The translations under genes and the position numbers were made by a program. A stretch of DNA of 64,000 nt, taken from positions 2,124 through 66,123 of the forward strand of contig JBBAAN010000002.1 in assembly GCA_041658225.1 (NCBI GenBank). The letters are read 5' to 3'. Shown in pieces: positions 34,439 to 58,255 of the stretch (position 1 is its first letter; every line of letters starts with the position of its first letter). Origin of the DNA: Actinomycetota bacterium (GTDB taxonomy: Bacteria; Actinomycetota; CALGFH01; JBBAAN01). The notes beneath the pieces are model-generated. The model saw nothing but the letters and a program-made list of their open reading frames with translations, ran no database searches and was not told the DNA's origin.

Positions 34439-34439
34439 G

Positions 34440-37000: not shown

Positions 37001-37050
37001 CTCGCGTCACCCCCGTTCATCACCATTCAGTCTCGACAGGTGCTCTCCCC

Positions 37051-41329: not shown

Positions 41330-41369
41330 GAGCTCGAGAACGGTGAAACCGCCCTCGGCCTCGCGGAGT

Positions 41370-42599: not shown

Positions 42600-42652
42600 G
42601 CCGCAACCACCCCTAGTCGTCCCTAATCCCCCCAGACGTGCCCAGAGTATCG

Positions 42653-43708
42653 TCAAGAAGACCCTATCAGTTTAGGCCCCACCGGCCGGGCCGCACGGGT
42701 CCCCAGCAGCAGCCAGCGAAGTAGACGGAGGGCGGGTGCCCGGCGACGCACCAACCGGCGCTTGCGCCAAAGGCGAGGGAACAGCTTCATAGCGTCCGGG
42801 ATTGCCCTGAGCGTGGCGCGCTCGCGCAACGCGCAATAGGCAACGAGGGCCAACTCGCGAGCCAGGATGGCCGGGAGACTCGGCAGGAATGTCGCGAGGG
42901 TCTCGTTCTTGACGCCCACCAGGTAGCGGTTCCTGACGCCGATGCGCCGCACCCACTCTTGCGAGTGCTCCCTCGACTCCGGTCGGAACCTGCGGTTGTG
43001 GCGGCCGACCGCACCGGCGACGTACATTGCCCGCCACCCCGCGGACTTGGCCCGCCACGCCAGATCCACGTCTTCCCGGTAGCAGAACAGGTCCTCGTCC
43101 AAGACCTCGCCCGAACAAGCCACGTCCTCGAGCATCCTCCGTCGGTACAACCCGGCGGCGGCCGAGACCCCGAAAACCCACTCGTCGCGCGCGTACTGCC
43201 CGCGGTCCTCCTGCCCCGCGCCCCGGTCCAGCGCACGCCGATCGGCTCGCACGAAGAGTCCCGTGGAGTCAAAGATCGGCGTGGCCTCCAAAGCGCCCGC
43301 CCGAAGCAGCTTTCCCGTCAGCGAGCCCACCCGCCGCGCGGCGAGGCCCGCCCGCAGCAGTCTCTCCACGTAGTCCGGCTCGAGAACCACGTCGGGATTG
43401 ACCAGGAGAACCCACGGCGCCGTGCCCAGTGCCAGGCCCTGGTTCACCGCCGCCGCGAACCCCAGGTTGCCGGCATTGCGCAGCAGAGTTGCCTGCGGCC
43501 AGAGTCGCGAGATTATCTCCGCCGAGCCATCAACCGATCCGTTGTCGACACAAACAAGCGACACGGGAACGGTCTGAGCTCGAAGGCAGGCAAGGCACTC
43601 CGCAAGACTGGCCGCGCTGTTGAAGCTCACCACCAACGCATCCACGCTCGGCCATCCGCCAGTTCGGCTCTCACCTCCCGCCTGCCCGACCGACGGTGCT
43701 CGCATCAT
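42653..43708 (-). CDS. Family 2 glycosyltransferase.
   Basis: GT2 signature VVSFNSAASLAECLACL...VDNGSVDGS...LVNPD (DxD-type) in first 120 aa. Confidence 0.8.
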   Translation of the reverse strand: MMRAPSVGQAGGESRTGGWPSVDALVVSFNSAASLAECLACLRAQTVPVSLVCVDNGSVDGSAEIISRLWPQATLLRNAGNLGFAAAVNQGLALGTAPWVLLVNPDVVLEPDYVERLLRAGLAARRVGSLTGKLLRAGALEATPIFDSTGLFVRADRRALDRGAGQEDRGQYARDEWVFGVSAAAGLYRRRMLEDVACSGEVLDEDLFCYREDVDLAWRAKSAGWRAMYVAGAVGRHNRRFRPESREHSQEWVRRIGVRNRYLVGVKNETLATFLPSLPAILARELALVAYCALRERATLRAIPDAMKLFPRLWRKRRLVRRRAPALRLLRWLLLGTRAARPVGPKLIGSS

Positions 43709-46449
43709 TCCTCCGACGCCGCATAGGCCCGATCGGCAGCCCGAGAGGCCCCGGATGATTGCCCGTACCTGCCACCCTCCTGAGCCCCCGCCCCCTCTGA
43801 TATCCCCCAGCTATACAGCAACGCGTCCGCCTTTCTCAAGCGCCCGGCCGCCCACAAAGCCAGAGGGAAGAAGACCCCGAACAACCCGCCTCCGACCAGC
43901 GCCGCCAGTCCCGCTCCGATGCGGCCGGCCGGCGCCACAACGCCCGCCGCAAATCCCGCGGCCGCCCCTGCCAGCCCCCCCGCAAGCCCAGACGCCCAGA
44001 TCCTGGACATCTCAATACCCCTCGGGTACCCGAACGCCCGTCGGAACAACCCCAGGAACAGCGCTGCCCCAGCCACCAAGGCGACCGTCGGTCCCCAAGC
44101 CGCGCCGGCAATCCCGAACCGGCCAACCAGGAACACCGACAGTGGGACATTCACCGCGGCGATCAGCACCCCCACACGCGCCAGGAGACCGGGCTGGTTG
44201 AGACCCTGCGAAAACACCGCGAAAGTCCCGGTGGCTGCGTTGAGCGCAGCCCCCAAAGCCAGAATGCGAACGAGCGAGGCGGCCTGCGCCCCGTGCGCAC
44301 CAAGGGCCCCGCCCACCCATGCTCTGATTGCCTCGGGTGCCAGGATCGCGAGCAGGGCGAACGCCCCAGCGGCGACCCCAACCAAGAGCCGGGTCGCCCG
44401 GTCGAATAGACGACGCAGCGCCTCTTCCTCCCCCCTGCCGCGAAGGTCTGCCGCCGCGGGCATGACCCCCGCGATCAACAGCAACGTCAGATCCCTTAGC
44501 GCCTTCACGACTCGGGCTGCCACCTCATACCCAGCCAGAACGCCCAACCCCAGGAAGCGCGCGACGATGATGCGGTCGGCATAGGTCATCGCGAGCTCCG
44601 CCAGCACGCTCAGTTGCAGCTTGCCCCCGAAGCCGACCAGAGCCCCCAACTCCCCCGAAGACACTGAGCGCGCGCGGATCCTGACATCGGGGAACACACG
44701 CCGCAGCGCCAACCCGTTCAGACACGGGTTGATCAGGGCCCCCAGTACCGCGATAGCCGCAAGGGCGTAGAGGCCACCGCCGAGATGCAAAGCCATCAGG
44801 GTAGCCACAGTCTGAGGCACCATCAGCCGGATGCTGATCCGAGAGGTAACGTCCAGACGCTGCCGACCCACGAGTCCGGCCGCGTATACCCCTCCCACAC
44901 CGTTCAAGAAGAAGCTCGCCACGCCGGAGAGCAGCGCTGCCGCGGCCTCACCCTGCAGGTGGGCCGGCACCCGGAAAACGGACATGAACGCGGCGCGCCC
45001 CGCCCAACAAGCGGGGACAACCAACAGCAACAGCAGCACATAGATCGCCAGGCCCGTACTCAGGGTCCGGCTCATGGCGTGCCGATCCCCACGCGCATGG
45101 CCATCTGCCACCCTCTTCGCGAACGCGTTGGAAGCCCCGAGATCCAGCAACCCCAGATGCTGGGCCAGGATCCCCGTGAGCGACCAGACCGCGAACCGTG
45201 AAGTTCCCAGCCGGGAAAGGGCGTAGGGAACCACGATCAGCGCGGCGACCATTCCCGCCACTCGGGCTAGAGCATTCTCAAGAGTGTTGCGCGGGAGCCG
45301 CGCCAGCGAATCCAGCGAGCCGGGCCTGGCCGTCGCGTGGCACATTTCTTCGAACTGCGCCGTTGCCGCCTGCCAACCGTAGTGCTCCGAGACCCGCCCG
45401 GCGGCCAGGTTACCCAGCCGCTCTCGCCGCTGCGGATCCGCGAGCAATCCAGAGAGGGTGCCGGCCAATCCTGAAGCCCCATCCGCCAGCCGGAAAATGA
45501 CCGCCGTCCCTCCAACGACCTCCAAGTTCGGGACGTGATCACTGGCCAGCACGGCCCGGTGAGCGGCCATCGCCTCCAAGAGCACTGGATGGGTTCCCCC
45601 GACTTCGGTGGGGACCACAAACACCGCGGCGTGGCTGGCCAGTTCCCGGAATCCCTTGCCGAACAGATAGCCCGCGAAGACCACCTCCGGGCCGGCGAGC
45701 TCACGCAAACGAGACTGGTACTCCCGGGCATAGGGGGCGTCACCAACTATGACCAGCCGCATCCCGGCGTCCCGCTCCACCTGCCGCCAGGCCTCGAGTA
45801 GCAGGTGCGCGTTGTTCTCCGGTACCAGCCGCCCTACGAATAGCACGTACTTGCCGGCTTCCAGGCCCAATCTGGCGAGCGTCTCCGTGCCCGGTTCAGC
45901 GATCGGGTCCACCCCGTAGCGCACGACCGCGGGACGCTTGCCGAAGCGGCGGCTCATCTCCTCGGCCACCGCGACGGAATCGGTGACGCACAGGTTGGGG
46001 GCAAACACCGAGATTCGCTCCGCGAAGCGCAGATACCGCCGCGCTAGCCGCCCCCACTTCTCCCGCCTGGAATCCGCCCCATCCACATTGAGGATCGTCC
46101 GCAATCCCAGAAGCCTCGCCAACAGGACGATCGGCGCATTGCCGGCGGTGGCGTACACGGCCACATCGGGCCGGGGCCTCAGGCGGAAAGCTGCATGCAG
46201 GGTGGAGAGCAGGGTGTGCAGGAATGTCTCGAGATGCTTGCTGTGCAATACCGGCAACCGGACCAGACGGACTCCTCGGTACTGTGAAGGCCCTTTCCCT
46301 CCCCGACAGTAGACCGTGACCTCGTGGCCCTCCGCCGCCAGGCGGGTCGCGAACCCCTCGACGGCCGTCTCGACGCCCGAGTAGGAGGCAGGGATACCGC
46401 GGCTTCCCAGGAACGCGACCCGCAGCCGCAGGTCGGTTTGCCCATCCAT
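43705..46449 (-). CDS. Fusion protein: an N-terminal GT4-family glycosyltransferase joined to a C-terminal Wzx-like (MOP superfamily) polytopic flippase domain.
   Basis: N-terminal half has GT4 features (VAFLGSRGIPASYSGVETAVEGFA, C-terminal EX7E-like region VFVVPTEVGGTHPVLLEAMA). C-terminal half has about 12 hydrophobic helices with Wzx-like N-region LSRLGTSRFAVWSLTGILAQHLGLLDLG. Confidence 0.7.
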   Translation of the reverse strand: MDGQTDLRLRVAFLGSRGIPASYSGVETAVEGFATRLAAEGHEVTVYCRGGKGPSQYRGVRLVRLPVLHSKHLETFLHTLLSTLHAAFRLRPRPDVAVYATAGNAPIVLLARLLGLRTILNVDGADSRREKWGRLARRYLRFAERISVFAPNLCVTDSVAVAEEMSRRFGKRPAVVRYGVDPIAEPGTETLARLGLEAGKYVLFVGRLVPENNAHLLLEAWRQVERDAGMRLVIVGDAPYAREYQSRLRELAGPEVVFAGYLFGKGFRELASHAAVFVVPTEVGGTHPVLLEAMAAHRAVLASDHVPNLEVVGGTAVIFRLADGASGLAGTLSGLLADPQRRERLGNLAAGRVSEHYGWQAATAQFEEMCHATARPGSLDSLARLPRNTLENALARVAGMVAALIVVPYALSRLGTSRFAVWSLTGILAQHLGLLDLGASNAFAKRVADGHARGDRHAMSRTLSTGLAIYVLLLLLVVPACWAGRAAFMSVFRVPAHLQGEAAAALLSGVASFFLNGVGGVYAAGLVGRQRLDVTSRISIRLMVPQTVATLMALHLGGGLYALAAIAVLGALINPCLNGLALRRVFPDVRIRARSVSSGELGALVGFGGKLQLSVLAELAMTYADRIIVARFLGLGVLAGYEVAARVVKALRDLTLLLIAGVMPAAADLRGRGEEEALRRLFDRATRLLVGVAAGAFALLAILAPEAIRAWVGGALGAHGAQAASLVRILALGAALNAATGTFAVFSQGLNQPGLLARVGVLIAAVNVPLSVFLVGRFGIAGAAWGPTVALVAGAALFLGLFRRAFGYPRGIEMSRIWASGLAGGLAGAAAGFAAGVVAPAGRIGAGLAALVGGGLFGVFFPLALWAAGRLRKADALLYSWGISEGAGAQEGGRYGQSSGASRAADRAYAASEE

Positions 46450-46451
46450 CG

Positions 46452-47924
46452 CTACACCGCGCCGCGCCGGCTGAGAACGGCGGGAAGTGTGCGGGCCAAG
46501 ATCGCGAGATCGAGCAGCGGTGACCAGTTCTCGACGTAGAGCACGTCCAGGCGCATCGACTCTCCGAAGGACAGGTCGCTGCGCCCGCTCACTTGCCATA
46601 GCCCGGTCATCCCGGGCACCGCTCGCAGACGACGCAGCTCCAACTCGTCATAGTGAGCCACTTCGGACAGTGGCATGGGCCGAGGGCCTACCAGGCTCAT
46701 GTCTCCCTTCAGAACATTGAGCAGTTGGGGTAGTTCATCGAGGCTGGACCGCCGCAGAAACTCGCCGACCCTGGTGACCCGAGGGTCCGAAGCCACTTTG
46801 AACCTCGGCCCATCCGCCCCGTTCAGCTCCGCAAGACCCGCCTCCATCTCCTCGGCGCCGAGCACCATCGTCCGGAATTTCCAAACGCGGAAGCCTTTCC
46901 CGAACCGGCCGACTCGCCAGTGGCGAAAGAGCACCGGGCGGCCCCCATCGGCGAGCACGGCCACCGCAATCGCCAGGAACACCGGCGCTAGCACCACTAA
47001 CCCTACAGTGGCCAGAATCAGGTCGAGTGCCCGCTTCGCGAGAGCCTTGGGCCCCGACAACCGCACCTCCCCCACGTCCAGCAAGGGCATGTCGCCGATC
47101 GACGCCACGACGAGCCTCGAGGTCAGGACATCGGCCAGGGCGGGCGCAACCAACACGCGAACACCGGTGCCCTCCAGCGTTCGAAGCACGCCCGCCACGG
47201 TCTCGCTGGAAGCCGCGCCGGAGGACACGACAACGGCGTCGGGCCGCAACCGCTCCGCCTTTACAGCCAGATCCCCCACCGGCCCCAGCACTGCTCCCTG
47301 CCCCCAGATCACGCACCCGACGGGGGTTTGGTCGTCCATGAACCCGACAACCTGGTACCCCCCGGCCTCCCGCCGCTCCAGGCGTTCCGCAAGGACCCGA
47401 GCACCCGAGTCCGCTCCGACGATCAGGACCCGGCCGGACACAATCCCTTCGACCCTCAACCGGGCCAGCCAGCGCCCGACCACCACGCGCCATCCAGTCA
47501 GCAGGAGAAAGGTCGCGATCCCGCCCAACACGGGCCAGGTTCGTGCCGGCTGCATCTTGAGGAAGAACGCCAATCCGGTGGTACCCACCATCGCGACCAG
47601 CACCGCGTGGAACACATCTCGCACTGCCAGCAAGCGAAGGAGCAGGCGCCTGGGCTCGTAGAGCCGGTAGGCGGCCAGCGCGAGCAGGCTCAATCCCACC
47701 CCCGCCCCCAGCAGCACAACGTAGTTGGCGTCCTCCGGCCGGTAGCCGACCAAGTTGGGCAGCGGCAGCAGCCCGGTGCGGAATCTGAGCAAGTAGGCGA
47801 AGCCCAGGCCGGTCAGAACGCACAGAGCATCTCCCGCGAGCACGAAGATCCAGACGCAGCGCATCAGCCCGCGTTCAGGTATCGGCTCTCCGCCGCGACG
47901 AAGCCTTCGCAGCAATGCGGTCAC
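46452..47924 (-). CDS. Undecaprenyl-phosphate sugar phosphotransferase, the WbaP/CpsE-like initiating enzyme of glycan assembly.
   Basis: N-terminal TM bundle and C-terminal bacterial sugar transferase domain with DELPQLLNVLKGDMSLVGPRP motif. Confidence 0.85.
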   Translation of the reverse strand: MTALLRRLRRGGEPIPERGLMRCVWIFVLAGDALCVLTGLGFAYLLRFRTGLLPLPNLVGYRPEDANYVVLLGAGVGLSLLALAAYRLYEPRRLLLRLLAVRDVFHAVLVAMVGTTGLAFFLKMQPARTWPVLGGIATFLLLTGWRVVVGRWLARLRVEGIVSGRVLIVGADSGARVLAERLERREAGGYQVVGFMDDQTPVGCVIWGQGAVLGPVGDLAVKAERLRPDAVVVSSGAASSETVAGVLRTLEGTGVRVLVAPALADVLTSRLVVASIGDMPLLDVGEVRLSGPKALAKRALDLILATVGLVVLAPVFLAIAVAVLADGGRPVLFRHWRVGRFGKGFRVWKFRTMVLGAEEMEAGLAELNGADGPRFKVASDPRVTRVGEFLRRSSLDELPQLLNVLKGDMSLVGPRPMPLSEVAHYDELELRRLRAVPGMTGLWQVSGRSDLSFGESMRLDVLYVENWSPLLDLAILARTLPAVLSRRGAV

Positions 47925-47935
47925 TGTAGTCCCCT

Positions 47936-47953
47936 GGGGTTGGAGTCAACCCC
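47936..47953. promoter_or_regulatory. Perfect 7-bp inverted repeat GGGGTTG-gagt-CAACCCC in the divergent intergenic region, 12 bp upstream of the sugar-transferase start codon.
   Basis: Seen directly; could be an operator or a 5'-UTR hairpin; function unknown. Confidence 0.3.
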
Positions 47954-48116
47954 GTATCGGCACGAACTGAGAGCCAATTGAGCACCCGGGTTCCAGCCCG
48001 CCCTGCCCAGCACCACGTTCGTGCTATGTTTCGCTCGGGCCGGCTGCACCGCCAGACGCGCGTGGTCCAGCTGGCAACGGCCCGAATCCAAGATACCCTT
48101 GCCGCCGAGGCGCTGA

Positions 48117-49979
48117 GTGTCGATTCCGCTGAGAATCCGCCGCATCCGCCTTCTCATCGAGGCCAGCAGCCGGGTCTGGACCGACGAGGGACCCGGCAGC
48201 TTCGCCGCGAAAACGGCCAGGCGCATGGCGCGCTCCCTCCTGGCGGGTGAGCCCCTGGCCAGGCCCCCCGAGCTTGTCGTGGCCGCTTCCGAGTACCGGA
48301 ACTGGCTGGAGACGGCAGTCCGCGCCAGAAACTCGAGGCAGGCTGGGAACCCGCCGCAGCAGCCTGCATACCAACCGCTGGTAAGCGTCCTCACCCCTGT
48401 CTACGACGTGGACGAAGCATGGCTGCGAAGAGCCATCGAGTCCGTCATCATGCAGAGCTACCCGAACTGGGAACTCTGCTTGGTCGACGACGCCTCCAGG
48501 AAACCCCACGTGCGCCGCGTGCTCTCCGAGTACGCCGCTGCCAACGAGCGGATCAAGGTCCGATTCCTGAGATCCAACTCGGGCATCTCTGAAGCCTCCA
48601 ACCGAGCCCTCGAGCTTGCCGAAGGGGAGTTCGTGGCCTTGCTCGACCACGACGACGAGCTCACTCCCGACGCGCTGCTCGAAGTGACGCGGCGTCTGGA
48701 GCGGGATCCCAGCCTTGATCTTGTTTACACGGACGAGGACAAGTACGCGAGGGGCGGTGCTCTCCCCGTCGAGCCATTCTTCAAGCCGGACTGGTCTCCC
48801 GACCTACTCCGGTCGATGAACTACATCACTCACCTGAGCGTCTTCCGCCGGAGCCTGGTCGAGGACATGGGCGGCTTCAGGGCTGGACTGGAGGGGAGCC
48901 AGGACTACGATCTACTCTTGCGCTTCACCGAACGGACGAACCGCATAGCGCATGTGCCCAAGGTCTGCTACCACTGGCGCAAGATAGCCGGATCGGCAGC
49001 CGTGTCCTCCGACAGCAAGCCCTACGCCTACCGGGCAGCGGAGCGGGCGCTCAGCGACGCACTTCGCCGCCAGGGCCGCGAGGGCAAGACCCGCATGATC
49101 GCCCCCGGCCGCTACCGGGTGCAGTATGCCATCGCGGGGACTCCTCCGGTGTCCTTCGTGGTCGCGGCCCGTGGCGGCAACCGTGCAATGGCCAAGTCTC
49201 TCGCAGCAATGGCCTCCAAGACCGCATATCGCAACATCGAGCTGATCGTTGTGGGGGCCCCGGACTGGCAAGAAATCGCGAGGAGGCTTCCCGAGTCGGG
49301 CCTGGCCATTCGACACGCTCCCGGACGTCCGGGGGCGGGATGGGCGACCACCTGCAACTTGGCGGCGTCGAGCGCACGCGGCCAGTACCTGCTCTTCCTG
49401 GATGGCCTCACGCGACCTCTGAACCCCCAGTGGTTGGAGGCCCTACTCGAGCATGCCCAGCGTGAGGAGGTCGGCGCTGTGGGTTCCACTCTCGTGCGCC
49501 GTAATGGCTACATCTCTCAGGCTGGCGTCGTGCTGTGTGCCGGTGGCGCCGCCCGCTACGCCTATCGCGATCTCGACGCCGGCTCACCCGGCTATGTCGG
49601 TCTCGCGCACGCCGTGCGCGACTGCAGTGCCGTGACGGGAGCGAGCATGATGATCCGGGCCGACCTCTTTCTGGACGTCGGAGGATTCGACGAGCACCTT
49701 GTGCCGCCATGGGCGGAGGTCGACCTGTGTTTGCGCCTCAGACACCACGGCTACCAAGTCGTCTGCACACCCTTCTCGCGGCTCCTGCAGCATCGGGGTG
49801 CCACTCGGCGAGCCCTACCATCCAATCGCTCCGCCGCGCTTGTCGTCAAACGGTGGGGCGAAGTAATCGCCGACGGCGATCCTTACTTCAGTCCCAATCT
49901 GGTGCCCGAGTTCGATATCGTTCGCCTTCGGGTTCCATCGAGCGACATGGCCGGACGAAAGGGGAGCGACTTTGCCTGA
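48117..49979 (+). CDS. Dual-domain glycosyltransferase with two tandem GT2 modules; divergent from the minus-strand glycan genes.
   Basis: Two regions with GT2 signatures, VSVLTPVYDV...LVDDAS...LDHDD and VSFVVAARGGN...LFLDGL. Confidence 0.75.
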   Translation: MSIPLRIRRIRLLIEASSRVWTDEGPGSFAAKTARRMARSLLAGEPLARPPELVVAASEYRNWLETAVRARNSRQAGNPPQQPAYQPLVSVLTPVYDVDEAWLRRAIESVIMQSYPNWELCLVDDASRKPHVRRVLSEYAAANERIKVRFLRSNSGISEASNRALELAEGEFVALLDHDDELTPDALLEVTRRLERDPSLDLVYTDEDKYARGGALPVEPFFKPDWSPDLLRSMNYITHLSVFRRSLVEDMGGFRAGLEGSQDYDLLLRFTERTNRIAHVPKVCYHWRKIAGSAAVSSDSKPYAYRAAERALSDALRRQGREGKTRMIAPGRYRVQYAIAGTPPVSFVVAARGGNRAMAKSLAAMASKTAYRNIELIVVGAPDWQEIARRLPESGLAIRHAPGRPGAGWATTCNLAASSARGQYLLFLDGLTRPLNPQWLEALLEHAQREEVGAVGSTLVRRNGYISQAGVVLCAGGAARYAYRDLDAGSPGYVGLAHAVRDCSAVTGASMMIRADLFLDVGGFDEHLVPPWAEVDLCLRLRHHGYQVVCTPFSRLLQHRGATRRALPSNRSAALVVKRWGEVIADGDPYFSPNLVPEFDIVRLRVPSSDMAGRKGSDFA

Positions 49980-50712
49980 GGTCTATGATGCCTTCTACTA
50001 CGCTACGTCCTGCGGCCGCCCCTACCGGCGAGACGAGGAGTGGCTAGCGTTCTTCGGCCGTATGGCGGATCGAATCATTCAGGACTTGAACCCCCGCACC
50101 GTGATGGATGCCGGCTGTGCTCACGGTTTCCTGGTCGAGGCCCTGCGGGACCGGGGGGTGGAGGCTTACGGCGTCGATGCGTCCGCTTACGCGATAGGGC
50201 AGGTCCGGCCGGACGTATCCCAGTACTGCACGATCGGTTCGCTTCTGGGACCTTTCCCGCAGACCTACGACTTGATCGTGTGCATCGAGGTAGTCGAGCA
50301 CCTTGCCGCAGCTCAGGCACACGACGCGATCGGCAATCTGTGCCGGCATGCCGACGACATTCTCTTCTCCTCCACCCCGGACGACTACACCGAGCCCACC
50401 CATCTCAACGTTCGTCCCGTCGAGCACTGGGCGGAGCACTTCGCACGCAACGGGTTCTTTCGGGACCTCGACTTCGACACGGAGTTCATAGCTCCGCAAG
50501 CAATGCGCTTCCGGAGATCGTCCGACCCGGCCCATCGCATGGTTGCGAACTACGAGAGGAAGCTTTGGTCGCAGACCAGGGAGACCGCCGCGCTACGCAG
50601 GCAGGTCATCGAGATGAAGAACCAGCTGTCTGCCGCCTGGCACCCTCAGCCCGACATGCCGTTGGGATGGATGCGCCGTGTGCGAACGCGCCACAAGGGT
50701 GGGACCACCTAG
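49972..50712 (+). CDS. Class I SAM-dependent methyltransferase; TTG start at 49972 or a downstream start.
   Basis: Rossmann-like motif VMDAGCAHGFLVEALRDRGVEAYGVDAS...LIVCIEVVEHL. Confidence 0.6.
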   Translation: MPEVYDAFYYATSCGRPYRRDEEWLAFFGRMADRIIQDLNPRTVMDAGCAHGFLVEALRDRGVEAYGVDASAYAIGQVRPDVSQYCTIGSLLGPFPQTYDLIVCIEVVEHLAAAQAHDAIGNLCRHADDILFSSTPDDYTEPTHLNVRPVEHWAEHFARNGFFRDLDFDTEFIAPQAMRFRRSSDPAHRMVANYERKLWSQTRETAALRRQVIEMKNQLSAAWHPQPDMPLGWMRRVRTRHKGGTT

Positions 50713-50853
50713 GAACCCCCCAACCTCCTGGCGTCCGGCGACCGCCCCACGGGGCCGAACCACACCCGGTTTCCCTACACACCCGACAAGACGCCCGACA
50801 ATCGCGTAGAGGGGAACCGTCCATGGGAAACCAGGAGCTTGGCAGCGGCACTA

Positions 50854-51369
50854 CTAGGATCGAGACCAGGAGTCGCCCCAAGCCGGGTCGGACGGATCCG
50901 GCACGGCGCACGAAGCGCCCGCGGGCACGGTGCGGTCATAGTAGGTGCCAGTCAAGCTGCCCGCCATGGTGTCCTTAATGTAGAAGCAGCGCCCCATCGA
51001 GGTTCTGCCCACCAGCACCACAGTCTGAGCCGTGCTTGGGATGTTGAACACCTTCAGGTAGATGGCCCGCGCTGATGAGCTGCCATCCAGAGCAGTTGTC
51101 GTCCAGGCCAGAGACGGCTCCACCTTCGACATCTCCGCCGAGTCCTCAGTGTATGCGGACCACTCGCCGTAGTAGATCCGACTCGCCGTGAACGCATTGC
51201 GCACGTTGGCTTGGGTAGCACGGTCGGCTGCCTGCCGGCGAGCCCCCAGGTAGGTCGGGATGGCGATCGCGATAAGGATGGCGATGATGAGTACGACCAC
51301 CATCAGTTCGATGAGGGTGAAGCCCTCGTGCCGCTTGGTGTGAGAGCCGAGGTTTCGCATGAACCCCAT
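50854..51369 (-). CDS. pilA: Type IVa major pilin, copy 1.
   Basis: Class III signal peptide ...TKRHEG|FTLIELMVVVLIIAILIAIAIPTYLGARRQ. Confidence 0.8.
   Translation of the reverse strand: MGFMRNLGSHTKRHEGFTLIELMVVVLIIAILIAIAIPTYLGARRQAADRATQANVRNAFTASRIYYGEWSAYTEDSAEMSKVEPSLAWTTTALDGSSSARAIYLKVFNIPSTAQTVVLVGRTSMGRCFYIKDTMAGSLTGTYYDRTVPAGASCAVPDPSDPAWGDSWSRS
51242..51321. repeat. 80-bp segment (1 mismatch) shared by pilA copy 1 and pilA copy 2 (52062-52141), covering the conserved alpha-1 N-terminal helix.
   Basis: Sequence ggtcgggatggcgatcgcgataaggatggcgatgatgagtacgaccaccatcagttcgatgagggtgaa is identical at both loci. Flanking 3' coding parts are unrelated at nucleotide level. Confidence 0.85.
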
Positions 51370-51664
51370 TATCGGACCATTAGCCGATCTACGTTAGGCC
51401 CGCGCCCAGACACCCTGCCGGCGCTCACAAGCAGCGGTCGAACAGCAGGCGCCCTGCGCCCTCACCGCCACCGCCCCTTTGGGGGGTTGGCACCCCCCGG
51501 TCCCCAGCCTCTCTTGCCGGCGCCTCACTTGCCCACACCCATCGAGCACAGGGCGGGGTTGACCCGCCCTATCTCACCCCACCGGACATGCGGGCCCGCA
51601 TCCGGATATCTCGGCGCCCAGACGACTCTCACCTCCTCGCGACTGTTCATGCCAGGCGCACCAC

Positions 51665-51696
51665 CAAGAAAACGGCGGGCCCTTACGGGCCCGCCG
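51665..51696 (-). terminator. Intrinsic terminator downstream of pilA copy 2.
   Basis: Minus-strand RNA CGGCGGGCCC-GUAA-GGGCCCGCCG (10-bp GC stem) followed by UUUUCUU; 20 nt after pilA2 stop. Confidence 0.7.
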
Positions 51697-51714
51697 TTCA
51701 GAGCGAAACCGGTA

Positions 51715-52182
51715 CTACCACTTGTCGGCGCCAGTGCCGGCACAGCTGGGAACCTTGAAGTACAGGGTACCCGCGCCAGTGCCGATAGACGTGTCCTTGA
51801 TCGAGAAGTTCGTGCCCGACATGCTGTGCGCGGTGAGACACACAACAGCGCTGTCGCCGAGGACCACGTCCGACACCTCCATCAAAACCTCACGCCGAGC
51901 GTCTGGAGTCCCGCTGTTCAGCCACGTCAGGGAAGGCTCAATGCCCTGCATCGACGCGGTGTCCTCCGTGAACACCTCGTTGTCCGTGTAGTACACCTTC
52001 TCCGCCGTCAGGCCGTTGCGGAGATCGGACTGAGCTGCACGGTCCTGCGCGCGCTTTCGGGCCCCCAGGAAGGTCGGGATGGCGATCGCGATAAGGATGG
52101 CGATGATGAGTACGACCACCATCAGTTCGATGAGGGTGAATCCCTCTTCCTTCTTGGTCATGCTTTCACGAAGTTTGATCAT
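51715..52182 (-). CDS. pilA: Type IVa major pilin, copy 2, with a strong RBS.
   Basis: Leader ...MTKKEEG|FTLIELMVVVLIIAILIAIAIPTFLGARKR; AAGGAGG 12 nt upstream of ATG; intrinsic terminator 20 nt after stop. Confidence 0.8.
   Translation of the reverse strand: MIKLRESMTKKEEGFTLIELMVVVLIIAILIAIAIPTFLGARKRAQDRAAQSDLRNGLTAEKVYYTDNEVFTEDTASMQGIEPSLTWLNSGTPDARREVLMEVSDVVLGDSAVVCLTAHSMSGTNFSIKDTSIGTGAGTLYFKVPSCAGTGADKW
52062..52141. repeat. Second copy of the 80-bp pilA N-terminal identical segment.
   Basis: See 51242-51321. Confidence 0.85.
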
Positions 52183-52387
52183 AATGTTTGTTCACCTCCT
52201 TTCCCGATCAGAGTCAACACGTACACCTGCGACACGTTTCTTGCGGGAGCCGGACCGAGTGGCCCGACAACCCGCCAGACGCGCCATCGCCCAGTTTCCT
52301 CCTTCGGGCAGCGCAGGTACATGACTTCCTGAATCCGACTATCGGTCCCAGAGCGCAATACCTTTAGCCCAATTTCACCCGAAGTGA

Positions 52388-53629
52388 CTAGGCATCTCGG
52401 GCCGTTTCCCACGCCGGGTCTGTCGGTCTGGCGCTCGCCCACAGTGCCCCCGCCGGCGATCCCAGCAGCACCGCCAGCAGCGCGGGCAGTGCCGGGTAGT
52501 GCCAGTCGAAGTCGAAGCCGGCGTGCGCGAGCAGCACTCCGGCGCCCACCACAAGCCCCGACTCCATTCCCGGGAACCCCTTCCGTACCAGGCGCCACGC
52601 AACGAGCGCGCCGGCAGCCAGCACTCCCACAGCAGCCAAAGCCAGAGGGGTCCCCCCTTCGGCCGCGGCCTGCAGATACTCGTTGTGGGCATACCGGCTC
52701 TTGATCGGCCCGTGCTGGTAGGGCGCGGCTGCCTTGCCGTAGAGGCCCAGTCCGACTCCCAAGACGGGGTGATCGGCGAACACCTCTCCTGCCGCGCGCC
52801 ACCAGTCCAACCGGCCGAAAGCACTGGAGCCGGCGTCGTTGCCGCGCACCGCCAGACCCTGCGGACGGTCGGAGGGCGTCGACTTCTTGGCCAGTGCGAG
52901 CGCCCCCAGTCCGAGCAGGCCCACCAGCGCGACGACCAGCAGTTTGCGCGCCCACCCGCGCCCGATGGCCACCGCGGCAGCCACTCCGCCAACCACCGCC
53001 AGAGCCAGGCTGGCCCTCGACCCGGACAGGTAGGTCGCCGCGAGTAGTGCGCCCGCGGTCACACCGGCAAGCACCCGGCCGCGACCCGGCTGGGAAACCG
53101 CCCATGCTGTCCAGAGCACCACGCCCACCGCAACGAAGATCCCAAACTGGTTGCGCCAGTAGAAGTGACCGGTCATGAACCCGCCTCCGCCGCCACCTCC
53201 CCCACCCCACCAGGTGTACCAGGCCCAAGCGGCCTCCCAGACGATCGCGAGGCCCGCGACCGCGGCTAACAGCCGCGCCCTGCCTCGCCCAGCCTCCACG
53301 AGCGCGGCGACCCCCAGACCGGGAAGCGCCGCGAACACCCTCCACGAAAGCAGGGCCTCCTCTCCCCTTCCCGGGATGAGCGCAAGGCTGGCAGCCAGCG
53401 CTGCCGCCCCCCAGAGCAGCACCGCGAACCGGCCTGCCCGCGAGCGCCACGCTGGGATCAGCGACACGAGGCCAGCCAGAGCAGCCAGGATTGCCGCACA
53501 GGTCAGTGTCCAGCCGCCGCGCCCACCCCAATCGGAAGGCAGCACGAAGAGCGCGTAGGCGAAAGCCACCCACCGAAGACCCGTAGCCACGGGCTGGGCC
53601 GCCGAGAGCCCGGAAGCGCTTGGGGTCAC
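52388..53629 (-). CDS. Wzy_C / O-antigen ligase family polytopic membrane protein. Candidate pilin O-oligosaccharyltransferase (TfpO/PglL-like).
   Basis: About 12 TM helices; periplasmic-loop motif RYAHNEYLQAAAEGG matches the HNxYLxxxxExG signature of the O-antigen ligase family. The gene is translationally coupled (ATGA) to pilC and precedes pilA. Confidence 0.65.
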   Translation of the reverse strand: MTPSASGLSAAQPVATGLRWVAFAYALFVLPSDWGGRGGWTLTCAAILAALAGLVSLIPAWRSRAGRFAVLLWGAAALAASLALIPGRGEEALLSWRVFAALPGLGVAALVEAGRGRARLLAAVAGLAIVWEAAWAWYTWWGGGGGGGGGFMTGHFYWRNQFGIFVAVGVVLWTAWAVSQPGRGRVLAGVTAGALLAATYLSGSRASLALAVVGGVAAAVAIGRGWARKLLVVALVGLLGLGALALAKKSTPSDRPQGLAVRGNDAGSSAFGRLDWWRAAGEVFADHPVLGVGLGLYGKAAAPYQHGPIKSRYAHNEYLQAAAEGGTPLALAAVGVLAAGALVAWRLVRKGFPGMESGLVVGAGVLLAHAGFDFDWHYPALPALLAVLLGSPAGALWASARPTDPAWETARDA

Positions 53630-54843
53630 TGAATCAGCTTGATGATGTTGAACATCGGCAGGTACAGGGAAACGACCATCCCTCCCACCGCGCCGCCCAT
53701 GACCGCGATGAGCAACGGCTCGATCAACGACGTGAGGCTATCAACGGCCGCCGAGACCTCAGCGTCGTAGAAGTCGGCGATCTTGGACAGCATCGTGTCC
53801 AGGGCCCCCGTCTCCTCTCCCACCGCCATCATCTGCACGACCATCGGCGGGAACACCGGGTGCGCCTCGAGCGGCTTGGACAGACTCTCGCCGTGGCGCA
53901 CCGCCTCCTGGACGTCCTTGACCGCCTTGGCCACCACACCGTTGCCCACCGTATCGGCCACGATGTCCAGGCCCTGCAGGATCGGGACGCCGGACTTCAG
54001 CAGCGTGGAGAGGGTGCGCGAGAACCGCGACAGCGCGGTCTTCTGGAACAGCGAGCCGAAGACCGGCATCTTGAGCTTCATGACGTCCAGGGCGTACCGG
54101 CCTTTGGGTGTAGCCTTCCACCGGCGAAGCGCGAAACCGGTCCCGATGGCACCGCCGAGGACCAGCCACCAGAACTTCTTGAAGATGTCGCTCATCCCGA
54201 CGAGCACCCGCGTGGGCAGCGGCAACGTGCCGCCCAGGGTCGAGTAGAGGCTCTGGAACATCGGCACGACGAAGAGCAGCATCGCCGACAGGATCATGAT
54301 CACCATGCCGAACACGGCGACCGGGTAGGTCATCGCCGACTTGATCTTGCCCCGAAGTTCCACTTCCTTCTCGATGGTGTCGGCCAGACGCACCAAGACC
54401 TGGTCGAGGAAACCGCCGATTTCCCCCGCCTTGACCATCGCCACGTAGAGGTTGCTGAAGGCCTTGGGGTGCTTGCGCATCGCCTCCGAGAGGCTGGTTC
54501 CCTTCTCCACGTCGGTGCGCACCAGGCGCACGATCTCCGCCAGTTTGGGGTTCTCGGTCTGGTCCCCCAGGATCGAAAGGGCCCTCAGCAACGACAGGCC
54601 CGAGTTGATCATCGTGGCGAACTGACGCGAGAAGACCGCCACGTCCTTGAGCTTAATCCGGTTGCGGCCCGGAAGGTGCAGTTCCCTCTTGGCCGCGCCG
54701 GCCTTGACCGCCTCGATCGTCAGCGGCGCATATCCCAGCTCGCGAAGACGCAGGGCAACCGCGGACTGGGAGTCCGCCTCTACCGTGCCCGAGACCAGCT
54801 TGCCCTGCCGGTCACGCACCTTGTAGGCGAATGTCTCCGCCAT
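53626..54843 (-). CDS. pilC: Type IV pilus platform protein PilC (GspF family).
   Basis: Duplicated GspF domains; 405 aa; synteny pilB-pilT-pilC. Confidence 0.9.
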   Translation of the reverse strand: MAETFAYKVRDRQGKLVSGTVEADSQSAVALRLRELGYAPLTIEAVKAGAAKRELHLPGRNRIKLKDVAVFSRQFATMINSGLSLLRALSILGDQTENPKLAEIVRLVRTDVEKGTSLSEAMRKHPKAFSNLYVAMVKAGEIGGFLDQVLVRLADTIEKEVELRGKIKSAMTYPVAVFGMVIMILSAMLLFVVPMFQSLYSTLGGTLPLPTRVLVGMSDIFKKFWWLVLGGAIGTGFALRRWKATPKGRYALDVMKLKMPVFGSLFQKTALSRFSRTLSTLLKSGVPILQGLDIVADTVGNGVVAKAVKDVQEAVRHGESLSKPLEAHPVFPPMVVQMMAVGEETGALDTMLSKIADFYDAEVSAAVDSLTSLIEPLLIAVMGGAVGGMVVSLYLPMFNIIKLIQ

Positions 54844-54846
54844 GAC

Positions 54847-56481
54847 CTAGCCTCCCCTTCGCCCTGGGGCGGTCGCCCCACCGAGGAGCCGGCTCAGATC
54901 CTCCATGTGGTGACAGCGCTCGAAAGCTATCTCTCGGGTGACCTTGCCCGCGCGAACCAGCGTCGCCAGGTGCTGGTCCATGGTCTGCATCCCGTACTGG
55001 GCCCCCGCCTGGATGGAGGAGTAGATCTGGTGGGTCTTGCCCTCGCGGATCAGGTTGCGCACTGCCGGGGTGGCCACCAGCACCTCGACCGCCACCACGC
55101 GTGAGAGGACGTCGGTGGCCGGCAGCAACTGCTGGGAAACGATGCCCTGCAGCGAGGCCGCCAACTGCACCCGCACCTGCTGCTGTTGATGCGGCGGGAA
55201 GACGTCGATGACTCGGTCGATAGACTGCGGGGCGTCCTGGGTGTGCAGGGTCGCGAACACCAGGTGGCCGGTCTCGGCGGCGGTCAGGGCCACGGAGATC
55301 GTCTCCAGGTCGCGCATTTCCCCGACCAGGATCACGTCGGGGTCCTGGCGCAGCACGTGCTTCAGGGCGTTGGCAAAGGTCTTGGTATCGGCCCCGAGTT
55401 CCCGCTGGTTCACCATCGCCCTGTCGTGCGCGTGCATGAACTCGATGGGGTCCTCGATCGTCATGATGTGCACCGCACGCTCGTGGTTGACCACGTCGAT
55501 CACCGAGGCAAGCGTGGTGGACTTGCCCGAGCCGGTCGGCCCGGTGACGAGCACGAAGCCGCGCTGCATGTGCGCGAAGCTTCGAAGGATCGGCGGCAAC
55601 CCGAGCGCCTCGGGAGACTTGATCTCCATGGGGATCGCCCGGAACGCCGCCCCGATGGAATCGCGCTGGAAGTAGACGTTGACTCGGAAGCGCGACACGC
55701 CCGGCAGGCTGTAGGCGCAGTCAAGCTCCAACTCGTTCTCAAGGACCTCTCGCTGCTTCTGGGAGAGGATCGAGTAGACCACCTTGCGCAGCTCTCCCGG
55801 GTCCAGCGGTGGATGGGGATCCAGCCGGATGAGGTCTCCGTGCACTCGCACCACCGGGGGCGATCCGGCGGTGAAGTGCAGGTCCGACGCGCCCATCTCG
55901 ACCATCTCCTCGAGCAACTCGGCAAGATAGGTCGCCCGTGCGGTCTCATGGTCACTGCGCTTCATCCAGGCCGAGCGAGTCTGGCCGGGAACGGCCTCGG
56001 GCCGAGCCGGGGGACTCGGGGGAGAGGCCATCTCCACCGCGGCGGCGGACTCCACGGGGCCAAACGGCACGTCGATACGCGCGGGCATCACTATCTCCTC
56101 CACTACCTCCGGCGCCGCATCGGATACCACGAACACCTCGGACACTCCTGAGTCCGGCTCGTCCAGCGAGATCATGCTCACGGGATCCGGTTCACCGGAC
56201 ACCTCACCGGGCTCCGCGTCCTCAGCCTGCGCTTGCACCCCAACCTCGACTTCGGGCAACAGCACGCTCTCCTCCCCTTCCGCGACCTCAGCCGCCGGCT
56301 CCTCGCCCGCTTCGGGCTCAGCCGGAGCCTGCGGTTCAGGGAGCGCTTCAGGCTCGGCCGGAGCTTCAGGCTCAACCGGAGCCTGCGGTTCGTCGGCAAC
56401 AGGCTCAGGCGGCGCAGCCTCGGGCGCCGGGCCCTCCGGCCGGAACACCTCGCCCACGATCCACGGTTCCCGCTTCTTCAC
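54847..56481 (-). CDS. pilT: Twitching-motility retraction ATPase PilT with an N-terminal acidic Pro/Glu/Ala-rich extension of about 170 aa. Start assigned to GTG at 56481 after a GGAGG site; an alternative internal start is ATG 55965.
   Basis: C-terminal 372 aa are a canonical PilT: Walker A GPTGSGKST, Asp box, AIRNLIRE motif. The upstream in-frame region has no stop and the best SD (GGGAGGtggacGTG) precedes codon V52. Confidence 0.75.
   Translation of the reverse strand: MKKREPWIVGEVFRPEGPAPEAAPPEPVADEPQAPVEPEAPAEPEALPEPQAPAEPEAGEEPAAEVAEGEESVLLPEVEVGVQAQAEDAEPGEVSGEPDPVSMISLDEPDSGVSEVFVVSDAAPEVVEEIVMPARIDVPFGPVESAAAVEMASPPSPPARPEAVPGQTRSAWMKRSDHETARATYLAELLEEMVEMGASDLHFTAGSPPVVRVHGDLIRLDPHPPLDPGELRKVVYSILSQKQREVLENELELDCAYSLPGVSRFRVNVYFQRDSIGAAFRAIPMEIKSPEALGLPPILRSFAHMQRGFVLVTGPTGSGKSTTLASVIDVVNHERAVHIMTIEDPIEFMHAHDRAMVNQRELGADTKTFANALKHVLRQDPDVILVGEMRDLETISVALTAAETGHLVFATLHTQDAPQSIDRVIDVFPPHQQQQVRVQLAASLQGIVSQQLLPATDVLSRVVAVEVLVATPAVRNLIREGKTHQIYSSIQAGAQYGMQTMDQHLATLVRAGKVTREIAFERCHHMEDLSRLLGGATAPGRRGG
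56311..56400. repeat. Degenerate direct repeats (23-bp core ggctca[g/a]ccggagcctgcggttc at 56315 and 56369, partial copy at 56351) within the PilT N-terminal extension coding region.
   Basis: Seen directly; encodes EPQAPAEPEA-type repeats. Confidence 0.6.
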
Positions 56482-56569
56482 GTCCACCTCCCCACGCACC
56501 CGACAATACTCCGCCGAGGACGTCAAAGTGCCTATTCGGACCCCGGCCTCAAGGCCTTGAGCCTTCTCA

Positions 56570-58255
56570 CTAGATGACGACGCGCAAGATCTCCTCCAGG
56601 GAGGTCGACCCCCGGGCCACCTTGCCGAGCCCATCCTCCCTCAGCGTCGTCATTCCCTGCTCACGAGCCATCCTGGCAATCTCATCCGCTGAGCGTCGTT
56701 CCACGGTCAGTCGCTCGATGCCCTCACTCATGCGCATGATCTCGTGCAGACCCATCCGCCCGCGGTAGCCCGTGCGTCCACAGTATGCGCAGCCACCTGC
56801 CCGGTACAGCGTCGGCACCGGCTCGTCCTGCTTCCAGGGAAACCGCGCCTCGATGAGGCTGTCGGGGGTCGGCTCGTACACCTCCTTGCACTTCTCACAC
56901 AGGCGCCGGGCCAGCCGTTGGGCCAGCACACAGTCCAGCGCGGAGGTGACCAGGAACGGCTCGATGCCCATCTCGATGAGGCGCGTAATCGCCGAGGGAG
57001 CGTCGTTGGTGTGCAACGTCGACAGCACCAGGTGCCCGGTCAGGGATGCCTCGATGGCGATCATCGCCGTTTCCTGGTCTCGGATCTCGCCGATCAGCAC
57101 CACGTCCGGGTCCGATCGCAGGATCGAGCGCAGGGCCGAGGCAAACGTCAGGCCCGCCTTCGTGTTGGTCTGCACCTGGTTGATCCCCGGCAGCCGGTAC
57201 TCGATGGGATCCTCCACCGAGATGATGTTGCGGTCCGGGGAGTTGAGGATGTTCAGGGTCGCATACAGCGTGGTCGACTTGCCCGAGCCGGTGGGCCCGG
57301 TGACCAGGATCATTCCGTAGGGCTTCTTGAAGGAAACCTCGTAGCGGGCGAAGGCCTCCATCGAGAAACCGAGATCCTGGAGTTTGAGCAGCACCGAGGA
57401 CTTGTCCAGGATTCGCAGCACGACCTTCTCGCCGAACGCCGTGGGCAGGGTGGCCACGCGGAGGTCGATGCCCTTGCCGCCCACCACCAGGCTGATGCGC
57501 CCGTCTTGCGGGATGCGCCGCTCGGCGATGTTGATATCGGCCATGATCTTCAGCCGAGAGATCATGCCGGCCTGGATGCGCTTGGAGGGGCGCATCACCT
57601 CATGGAGAACGCCGTCGATGCGGTAGCGCACGCGCAGGTCGTGCTCTTGAGGCTCGATGTGGATGTCCGAGGCGCGCTCGGTCACGGCCTGGGAGATCAG
57701 CAGGTTGACCAGCCTGACGATCGGGGCTTCCTCGACGACCTCCCGCAACTTGACGATGCTATCGAGATCCTCGGATTCGTCGGTCGCCTTGGCGGCCGCG
57801 ATGTCCCCCGCCGAGGTGTCCATCCGCTTGAAGCGCTCGATGGCCTCGAGCACGTCCGATCGGGTGGCAACCACGACTTTGAGGTCCATCCCCGTGACCG
57901 TGCGGATGTCGTCCAGCGCAACCACGTTGGTCGGGTCACTCATCGCCACGACCAACCGCCCGTCGTCGGTGGCGATGGGAAGAGCCAGGTAGCGGCGAGC
58001 CAGCGCTTCACTGACGAGGGAGGCGGCGTTGGCGTCGATCTGGAACTCGCCAAGTTCGACGAACGACAGGCCCGTCTGTTTGGCCAGGGCGGCCACCAGG
58101 TCGGACTCGCTGACGTAGTTCAGATCGATCAGGACGCGACCCAGCGACTTGCCCAGCCGCTCCTGCTCCGCAAACGCATGCTCGAGCTTGTCCTCGCTGA
58201 GACAGCCCTCCTCGAGGAGGACGTCCGCCAGGCGCTGAGTCTTCCTGCTCGTCAT
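56570..58255 (-). CDS. pilB: Type IV pilus assembly ATPase PilB (GspE family).
   Basis: N1/N2 domains, Walker A GPTGSGKST, tetracysteine CEKCK...CAYCGRTG motif; 561 aa. Confidence 0.9.
   Translation of the reverse strand: MTSRKTQRLADVLLEEGCLSEDKLEHAFAEQERLGKSLGRVLIDLNYVSESDLVAALAKQTGLSFVELGEFQIDANAASLVSEALARRYLALPIATDDGRLVVAMSDPTNVVALDDIRTVTGMDLKVVVATRSDVLEAIERFKRMDTSAGDIAAAKATDESEDLDSIVKLREVVEEAPIVRLVNLLISQAVTERASDIHIEPQEHDLRVRYRIDGVLHEVMRPSKRIQAGMISRLKIMADINIAERRIPQDGRISLVVGGKGIDLRVATLPTAFGEKVVLRILDKSSVLLKLQDLGFSMEAFARYEVSFKKPYGMILVTGPTGSGKSTTLYATLNILNSPDRNIISVEDPIEYRLPGINQVQTNTKAGLTFASALRSILRSDPDVVLIGEIRDQETAMIAIEASLTGHLVLSTLHTNDAPSAITRLIEMGIEPFLVTSALDCVLAQRLARRLCEKCKEVYEPTPDSLIEARFPWKQDEPVPTLYRAGGCAYCGRTGYRGRMGLHEIMRMSEGIERLTVERRSADEIARMAREQGMTTLREDGLGKVARGSTSLEEILRVVI

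Follow-up and report, generated by a model that had tools for sequence, protein, structure and literature searches.

How two clearly diverged pilin genes, lying side by side in one genome, have come to share an exact run of 70 nucleotides (nt) is the question raised by a 64,000-nt stretch of contig JBBAAN010000002.1 (assembly GCA_041658225.1, positions 2,124 to 66,123), referred to below as the window. The host is an uncultured, Acidimicrobiia-like actinobacterium, and the two genes, pilA2 and pilA1, follow one another on the minus strand within a type IV pilus cluster. The comparisons presented here favor, with a probability of roughly 0.8, a recent short-patch and non-reciprocal gene conversion in which pilA2 was the donor and pilA1 the recipient. 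Four elements carry the argument:

51715-52182, minus strand: pilA2 (copy 2 of the initial annotation), a complete prepilin open reading frame (ORF) of 155 amino acids (aa).
50854-51369, minus strand: pilA1 (copy 1 of the initial annotation), a prepilin ORF of 171 aa.
52071-52140, minus strand: the identity block in pilA2, the putative donor; 70 nt, exact, coding for mature residues F1-T23 and the first base of codon 24.
51252-51321, minus strand: the identity block in pilA1, the putative recipient; 70 nt, exact, bounded by mismatches at 51322 and 51251.

The presence of two tandem pilA genes, each with its own start codon and prepilin leader, had been noted from the sequence and is confirmed here, since both are complete minus-strand prepilin ORFs with their own leader peptide and a G-1/F+1/E+5 motif. 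Each prepilin has the N-terminus of a type IV major pilin, with a short, positively charged leader that ends in EG and is followed after the cleavage site by FTLIELMVVVLIIAILIAIAIPT. Both match Pfam N_methyl with E values of about 1e-8 (1.2e-8 for pilA1) as well as TIGR02532. The leader of pilA2 is MIKLRESMTKKEEG, its mature sequence starts with FTLIEL and its C-terminus reads ADKW, which makes it of the canonical type of its family. For pilA1, the ATG at 51360 is the likelier start; it gives a protein of 168 aa with the leader MRNLGSHTKRHEG, and this is also the form retained in the Joint Genome Institute (JGI) gene call. The C-terminus of pilA1 (DPAWGDSW-SRS) carries an SRS tail (50854-50865) beyond the terminal Trp that is usual for the family. 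AlphaFold models of pilA1 and pilA2, with mean confidence scores (pLDDT, predicted local distance difference test) of 85 and 91, respectively, have a common topology of helix alpha1, a short helix and a beta-sheet, in which the long N-terminal helix packs on an antiparallel beta-sheet head as in the pilin fold. The C-terminal tail of pilA1 is predicted with low confidence in the AlphaFold 2 model.

The identity between the two genes, which had been described as about 80 bp with a single mismatch, is real. In a codon-by-codon comparison, the 69 nt coding for F1-T23 are identical, and the exact run amounts to 70 nt; from the GAG codon of E-1 through T23 there are 75 nt with a single mismatch (GGA/GGC), and 52061-52146 aligns with 51242-51327 over 86 nt with two mismatches (GGA/GGC and TTC/TAC). 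The copies are direct repeats 819 nt apart, and the block is present exactly twice in the window, where chance predicts no occurrence. The leader codons just upstream of it differ between pilA1 and pilA2, while downstream the nucleotide identity falls from 98% in the block to 55% and then to 46%. The GC content of the window is 67%. On the plus (antisense) strand, sub-threshold Rfam matches to the archaeal C/D snoRNA sR32 cover parts of both copies (51280-51336 and 52099-52146); their scores of 23 and 16 bits fall below the gathering score of 40, and they were judged to be due to chance.

Beyond the block the two genes remain recognizably related, contrary to the description of their 3′ halves as unrelated. 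BLASTP aligns 149 residues of pilA1 and pilA2 end to end at 51% identity (E 4e-33), the heads alone match each other at 41% identity (E about 5e-20; 39-41% over the different comparisons), and the AlphaFold models share a fold. The two genes are old, diverged paralogs and not unrelated heads placed on a common stem. The head of pilA2 has 48-56% identity to pilins from a dozen other genomes, and that of pilA1 52-60% identity to L049_9269, P0123 and P0124. Each head is thus closer to pilins of other genomes than to its neighbor, which indicates separate head histories. Both pilin types also stand in tandem on the L049 and L084 contigs, in the opposite order and without an identity block.

A stretch of well-conserved protein in a GC-rich genome is expected to be similar at the nucleotide level, and the block must be judged against this expectation. 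With codon frequencies taken from 13 long genes of the window, the probability that 23 out of 23 codons coincide is 10^-6.5, and that of this particular set is 10^-8. The block includes codons that are rare in the window, namely GTA (4% of Val), CTT (9% of Leu) and GAA (16% of Glu). At residues conserved in both genes, the first 27 codons hold 24 identical codons out of 25 and the remainder 21 out of 40 (Fisher p 1.2e-4), and a run of at least 23 identical codons has a probability of 1.5e-5 at the rate observed outside the block. An independent scale is provided by 80 related pilus loci, fetched with PilC as query, from which the pilins were extracted. Among 658 between-genome pilin pairs with the same 23 residues, a mean of 59.2 out of 69 bases are identical, and all 69 are identical in 8 pairs; 209 of the 658 have heads less than 45% identical, and just 4 of these reach at least 67 out of 69. 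Five comparably diverged tandem pairs (L016, L049, L053, L061 and L075) served as a further control. Their blocks are 77-85% identical, with longest exact runs of 11-18 nt and with 11/22 to 15/24 identical codons (62/106 in total), compared with 98%, 70 nt and 24/25 codons in the window (p 1.2e-4 for the codons). The identity is therefore longer than that of other paralog pairs, and the tract is significantly more similar than both the rest of the paralog alignment and the matched controls; by these sequence comparisons, the block is not explained by codon bias or protein conservation.

The direction and timing of the transfer can be approached through L083, a 1.3-kb JGI contig (3300038466) that carries P0002 and of which positions 283-786 align with 51715-52182 of the window. 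L083 is collinear with the window through the pilC stop codon, the pilA2 promoter region, the 5′ untranslated region (5′UTR), the Shine–Dalgarno sequence and the leader, at about 88% nucleotide identity. The first 56 or so residues of its pilin are those of pilA2, after which a different head follows, and homology returns at the terminator. It has neither pilA1 nor the gene for a Wzy_C-domain protein that precedes pilA2 in the window, the order being pilC, pilA2, terminator and an unrelated gene. Across the F1-T23 stretch, L083 matches the window block at 68 of 69 bases, GTA and CTT included. Orthologs of the pilA1 type use other codons in the block, and in 4 of the 6 examined (L049_9269, L040_3612, L084a and L085) residues differ as well. 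Since the rare-codon block is found in the pilA2 allele of L083 and is absent from pilA1-type orthologs, its sequence can be assigned to the pilA2 lineage, from which pilA1 received its copy. The codon of E5 is GAA in pilA1 and in the resident pilA2 and GAG in L083; as pilA1 shares the resident form, the transfer appears to post-date the split from the L083 lineage. The tract thus groups by genome and the heads by ortholog group, with diverged sequence on either side of the patch. Over the region between the promoter and about codon 60, pilA2 itself is collinear with its ortholog. A reading of the direction from amino acids alone was dropped in favor of the codon comparison with L083, as the pilA1-type homologs P0125 and P0126 already have the canonical residues.

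The recent gene conversion proposed by the initial annotation is supported on three counts, namely the excess identity, the diverged bounds on both sides and the conflict in genealogy with the heads, and the present analysis adds its direction. In this event, the pilA2 stretch coding for the N-terminal half of helix alpha1 (alpha1-N, F1-T23) would have overwritten the matching stretch of pilA1, probably by a RecA-type mechanism. The tract would be short because only this part of the two genes is similar enough for homologous pairing; alpha1-N can pair because protein conservation and codon bias give it a baseline nucleotide identity of about 86%. Extension of the heteroduplex would then halt at divergent sequence, that is, at the leader on one side and at the C-terminal half of alpha1 (alpha1-C) and the head on the other. 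Gene conversion in bacteria is processive and is blocked where sequences differ (PMC5485169), which fits a maximal tract of 70 nt. As a result, the shared PilD/PilC/PilB machinery would be presented with an identical cleavage site and core-packing segment in two pilins with different heads. The process itself is ordinary and already known, and current understanding is not overturned.

Several points weigh against this reading. The event is deduced from a single consensus sequence, and a tract of 70 nt is short beside those of tufA/tufB, for which the average processivity in the model is about 500 nt. Elsewhere in the clade, homogenization within genomes mostly takes the form of young whole-gene duplicates, not of patches. 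L083 is the sole close relative in the database and lacks pilA1, so that the state of pilA1 before conversion has to be read from orthologs of just 45-60% identity. Furthermore, with some pilA1-type homologs (P0125, P0126) already having canonical alpha1-N residues, the direction rests on codons and not on amino acids.

Other origins of the block have to be weighed against gene conversion. If pilA1 were a chimera that came by horizontal transfer together with the Wzy_C gene and a neighboring island of glycan-biosynthesis genes, with one of the integrating junctions in alpha1-N, the identity would simply date from integration. The closest relative, L083, indeed lacks both Wzy_C and pilA1, BLAST-level homologs of Wzy_C or the glycan genes are missing from the 80 related loci, and recombination breakpoints within pilin genes are common in the clade. 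However, a single junction would let the identity extend in one direction, and it extends in neither, which disfavors a Campbell-type or single-junction integration of pilA1 at the block: pilA1-specific sequence flanks the block on both sides (leader and promoter upstream, Y24 and a pilA1-type alpha1-C downstream). pilA2 is not chimeric at the block, given its collinearity with L083, and the GC content of the island is unremarkable, which leaves a chimeric origin improbable. A conversion that accompanied the acquisition of the glycan island is conceivable. It is even less probable that the block is a maintained recombination substrate, in which a RecA crossover would delete 819 nt and act as a one-way head switch, leaving the promoter, Shine–Dalgarno sequence and leader of pilA2 fused to the head of pilA1, while unequal exchange could amplify the array. 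The repeats are direct, exact and in frame, such that the product would be an intact pilin gene, and relatives clearly exchange pilin heads. Against this, a search with the pilA1 head gave six proteins (pilA1 and five homologs), none of which has a pilA2 leader, an underpowered negative; the other genomes that have both pilin types without the block argue that it is not a conserved device, and a repeat of 70 nt is a poor substrate for recombination. Nor was a silent cassette, a G-quadruplex (G4) motif, an invertase or an inverted arrangement found in the regions and proteins detailed below.

The remaining possibilities are very unlikely. Young tandem duplicates are frequent in the clade (99-100% identity in L082, 85-100% in L007, L015 and L027), and a recent duplication of the whole gene followed by very fast diversification outside a constrained alpha1-N could be imagined. 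Outside the block, however, synonymous change has nearly saturated (8/15 and 13/25 codons identical where the residue is conserved), which no neutral clock fits together with 0/69 changes inside the block; the leaders and promoters differ, and each head is closer to those of other genomes than to its neighbor. Given the diverged flanks and the near-random synonymous sites beyond the block, this scenario is effectively refuted. That no special event took place, the identity being due to protein conservation with high-GC codon bias or to selection on the mRNA sequence, has equally little to commend it. The 23 residues are nearly invariant in the family, and the baseline of about 86% is high, but just 8 of the 658 same-residue pairs and none of the five tandem pairs attain the identity seen here, the shared rare codons have a probability of about 1e-7, and synonymous variation between genomes speaks against a universal constraint at the nucleotide level; at these probabilities this reading is refuted. 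An artefact of assembly, which had been named as a possible refutation, can be given just as little credence. The source is a short-read MEGAHIT metagenome contig (ENA ERZ27247322, k141_221035, 75.7 kb) and strain-level variants of the pilA2 head exist (L083), so that a collapsed or chimeric assembly might have created the block or the tandem arrangement. The repeat of 70 nt is, however, shorter than the final k-mer of the assembler (k=141), and all flanks of both copies are unique. A separate, independent NCBI/JGI contig of 109,827 nt codes for both proteins, identical and adjacent, under consecutive accessions (MFA5785538/39), and both genes are intact, each resembling full-length orthologs.

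The idea that the repeat could serve to swap pilin heads, which had been suggested, finds no support here. The geometry of direct repeats makes a swap possible in principle, but no recombinant was found and both genes are complete with promoter matches. Two exact-pattern scans of metagenome_contigs, with a 33-nt core of the block and with a degenerate pilA2 leader, returned nothing; the JGI contig of L083 is also absent from that collection. Promoterless silent pilin cassettes are absent from the window, where tblastn of both heads finds just the two complete genes, and a canonical G4 motif is absent from both strands of 50400-52800. Recombinase domains were not detected among the cluster proteins scanned, and the copies are direct and not inverted, unlike a switch of the Moraxella tfpQ/tfpI-Piv type.

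Head exchange does occur among close relatives, in a form that is not confined to the 70-nt block: the head is flanked by conserved stretches, one running from the promoter to about codon 60 and the other at the terminator. For example, L055 and L056 (about 9540-9830) have flanks that are about 90% identical and pilin 5′ ends at 98-100%, with a head of just 33-63%. This is the classic pattern of a hypervariable pilin-head cassette, here in Acidimicrobiia. The pairs L014/L015 and L058/L061 have the same features, with flanks of about 90%, 5′ ends of 98-100% and heads of 33-63%. In the case of L083 and the window, an allelic head replacement is seen at the same locus, with promoter, 5′UTR, leader, about 56 residues and terminator kept. 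A reverse mosaic exists in young tandem duplicates (L024 10611/11291, L027 10652/11334 and L030 9773/10437), where the alpha1-N block is 85-94% identical in nucleotides, with 15-21 of 26 codons identical, and the next 100 nt are 96-99% identical; this points to separate recombination histories within single genes. Mosaic recombination is common in these pilin arrays, and the patch of the window is one instance of it.

The two pilin genes also differ in their expression signals, which comprise the following:

52193-52201, minus strand: Shine–Dalgarno sequence of pilA2, AAGGAGGTG, 10 nt upstream of the ATG; the arrangement is the same in L083.
51665-51699, minus strand: intrinsic terminator of pilA2, 15 nt after the stop codon, with a 13-bp GC-rich stem, a GUAA loop and a UUCUU tail.
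52339-52366, minus strand: sigma28/WhiG-type promoter match of pilA2, TAAA-N16-ACCGATAG, with 2 mismatches and a predicted 5′UTR of about 150 nt.
51369-51396, minus strand: sigma28/WhiG-type promoter match of pilA1, TAAC-N16-TCCGATAA, with 2 mismatches.
47954-47981, 42647-42674 and 34741-34768, minus strand: further sigma28/WhiG-type matches before three other units of the pilus cluster, always with a spacer of 16.

The asymmetry in ribosome-binding site and terminator that had been pointed out between the two copies is real, as pilA2 has both AAGGAGGTG and the hairpin and sequence inspection of pilA1 finds no Shine–Dalgarno sequence upstream and no convincing terminator downstream. Neither a promoter nor the pilA2 terminator was picked up by a generic scan for sigma70 promoters and terminators; folding confirmed the terminator (dG -39.6 kcal/mol, z -3.8), which is conserved in L083. 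An Rfam match of this terminator to Xoo2, seen at a permissive threshold, is sub-threshold and was set aside as a chance match.

By the criterion of PMC8325347, a promoter of this type has up to 2 mismatches to TAAA-N15/16-GCCGATAA and lies no more than 200 bp from a start codon. In Rubrobacter, this consensus marks WhiG promoters inside a type IV pilus cluster, as confirmed by start-site mapping, and the partner anti-sigma factor RsiG has been reported in 3 of 4 Acidimicrobiales species (PMC8325347). Both pilins of the window have such a match within the limit, and of the three further matches, the one for pilM, at about 215 nt from the start codon, falls just beyond it. The pilA2 match is kept in L083 as TAAA-N16-GCCGATAG. 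Of the 80 related pilins, 33 have a match in the 300 nt upstream, compared with a background rate of 0.019 per 300 nt; across the clade, the motif takes the form TCAA-N16-GCCGATA(T/A). The hexamer CCGATA by itself shows no enrichment in the window (17 observed, 13 expected), so that information comes only from the complete bipartite motif and from its placement at the different loci. From these patterns, the pilus clusters of Acidimicrobiia appear to be driven by promoters of the sigma28/WhiG type. In the pilA1 promoter match, which holds the only CCGATAWT of the window, the -10 element runs into the first ATG, with its end 8 nt short of the second ATG at 51360 (region 51358-51376), an arrangement that points to a leaderless mRNA and to a product of 168 aa. 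A leaderless arrangement is absent from the other 32 related pilins with this promoter type, whose distances imply 5′UTRs of roughly 40-200 nt. The missing ribosome-binding site of pilA1 is better explained by a leaderless mRNA than by weak expression. Both pilA1 and pilA2 seem to belong to one regulon, as transcription units of their own that differ in how translation starts.

The surroundings of the pilin genes suggest a further theme, that of pilin glycosylation, through two elements:

52388-53629, minus strand: gene for a Wzy_C (O-antigen-ligase-like) membrane protein of 413 aa (Pfam Wzy_C, E 2e-18), the start of which overlaps the pilC stop codon.
42653-50712: 8-kb glycan-biosynthesis island directly downstream of pilA1, with a methyltransferase, two GT2s, a polyprenyl glycosylphosphotransferase and a 964-aa GT4-flippase fusion.

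A Wzy_C domain is common to all known pilin O-oligosaccharyltransferases, and TfpO and TfpM act on a C-terminal Ser or Thr (PMC9829042). As in TfpO/TfpM-like systems, the gene for the Wzy_C-domain membrane protein adjoins a pilin gene: it sits between pilC and the pilA2 promoter, a position at which L083 has no gene. In the 80 related loci, tblastn finds no homolog of it at E<=1e-5, and at E<=1e-8 no homolog of the glycan-island genes other than one distant match to the phosphotransferase. In many of these loci, pilD and pilM lie within 8 kb downstream of pilC. A homolog search with the Wzy_C protein gave 4 distant matches, the nearest of which (31% identity) also adjoins a pilin gene, one whose product ends in Asn. 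The protein matches the NCBIfam model for a putative O-glycosylation ligase weakly (24.5 bits versus a cutoff of 188), and it has no relative in the PDB and no detectable close similarity to characterized O-oligosaccharyltransferases. The proposal that both pilins be checked for Ser or Thr at the C-terminus has a divided outcome, since pilA1 ends in Ser (WSRS) and pilA2 ends in Trp like most of the family; among the five homologs of the pilA1 head, two end in WRS or WSS. The Wzy_C protein is accordingly presented as a candidate pilin O-oligosaccharyltransferase, a lead for glycosylation and not a demonstration of it. A broader scenario, which is doubtful, would make pilA1 an accessory pilin, possibly O-glycosylated at its C-terminal Ser and acquired along with the glycan island and the Wzy_C gene. 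Selection for compatibility with the resident PilD/PilC and with the filament core would then have favored the conversion of alpha1-N, and, as a by-product, the 70-nt repeat would allow the expression signals of pilA2 to become joined to the pilA1 head by deletion.

The pilus cluster to which these genes belong is complete and of the monoderm type, with pilB, pilT, pilC, pilD, pilM, pilN and pilO all within the window. On the minus strand the order is pilB, pilT, pilC, the Wzy_C gene, pilA2, pilA1, about 8 kb of glycan genes, the minor pilins, pilD and pilM/N/O, and shikimate-pathway genes surround the cluster. The components other than those already listed are:

56570-58255, minus strand: pilB, motor/platform gene.
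54847-56634, minus strand: pilT, motor/platform gene.
53626-54843, minus strand: pilC, motor/platform gene (Pfam T2SSE, MshEN and T2SSF for the three).
35780-42671, minus strand: minor-pilin-like genes in two paralogous sets (Pfam).
34887-35729, minus strand: pilD (Pfam).
32095-34573, minus strand: pilM/N/O (Pfam).

In species-representative genomes, PilC has at most 69% identity to anything, and its nearest relatives are in metagenome-assembled genomes of Acidimicrobiia/Actinomycetota. The cluster holds two major pilins and two sets of minor pilins. The minor-pilin region (35780-42671) is duplicated internally, with paralogous proteins of 428 and 406 aa, of 160/182 and 186 aa, and of 513 and 492 aa, the pairs having 71-86% nucleotide identity. 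A 300-nt stretch (37053-37352 versus 39311-39610) reaches 86%, clearly exceeding the rest, and may be another conversion mosaic. PilT has a Pro-, Glu- and Ala-rich N-terminal extension (56100-56634, minus strand) of about 200 residues with short imperfect repeats (e.g. 56309-56391), which is unusual in a retraction ATPase. Outside the cluster, the 3′ end of a 1053-aa ORF (11624-14785) contains an 87-nt tandem unit (11635-11844) in two full copies (98% identity), together with a third copy cut off after its first 36 nt.

In a lineage that has received little study, the locus provides a clean, well-controlled case of short-patch conversion between paralogs that have otherwise diverged. It illustrates how type IV pilins can keep their constant N-terminal helix identical within a genome while the heads diversify and pass between strains, and it warns that nucleotide identity at the 5′ end of pilin genes cannot be taken for recent duplication. 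The surroundings, with promoters of the sigma28/WhiG type and a candidate pilin-glycosylation island of a kind that would be unusual for a type IV pilus in an actinobacterium, may have greater practical interest than the block.

Each of these features can be set beside a known system. As under the WhiG/RsiG/cyclic di-GMP control of Rubrobacter (PMC8325347), matches to TAAA-N15/16-GCCGATAA stand before several pilus units, which in the window are predicted only. The -35 element of the present clade differs in being mostly TCAA, and the pilA1 match would give a leaderless transcript, seen at no other locus examined. Two major pilins are also encoded in Pseudomonas stutzeri, by pilAI and pilAII. 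For systems with two major pilins, we know of no report of an exact nucleotide identity block in otherwise diverged genes. In Thermus thermophilus, the major pilins PilA4 and PilA5 are both assembled into type IV pili (PMC7203116). The group I pilA-tfpO loci of Pseudomonas aeruginosa and Acinetobacter (PMC9829042, bioRxiv 10.1101/150227) resemble the present clade in their conserved 5′ ends and in hypervariable heads that are exchanged between strains. The window resembles them also in having a Wzy_C-domain gene beside the pilin gene and one pilin that ends in Ser, the acceptor type of TfpO/TfpM. The window differs from them in that its cluster is monoderm and actinobacterial, with the Wzy_C gene upstream, between pilC and pilA2, and with two tandem pilins.

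The closest parallels for the conversion itself come from two other systems. In Neisseria pilE/pilS, as here, gene conversion takes place between pilin-gene copies of one genome. There, silent cassettes with neither a promoter nor the conserved 5′ end act as donors for the variable 3′ part, and the process starts at a G4 motif. The situation in the window is the opposite: a conserved 5′ block has been homogenized between two complete, promoter-bearing genes, with neither silent copies nor a G4 motif. No report of this specific pattern in tandem pilins was found in the literature. The tufA/tufB genes of Salmonella (PMC5485169) share with pilA1 and pilA2 a non-reciprocal transfer between paralogs of one genome and an identity tract bounded by divergence. 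The tuf genes, however, are near-identical along their whole length and have tracts of hundreds of nt, whereas the two pilin genes are about 50% identical overall and their tract is confined to one conserved coding island of 70 nt.

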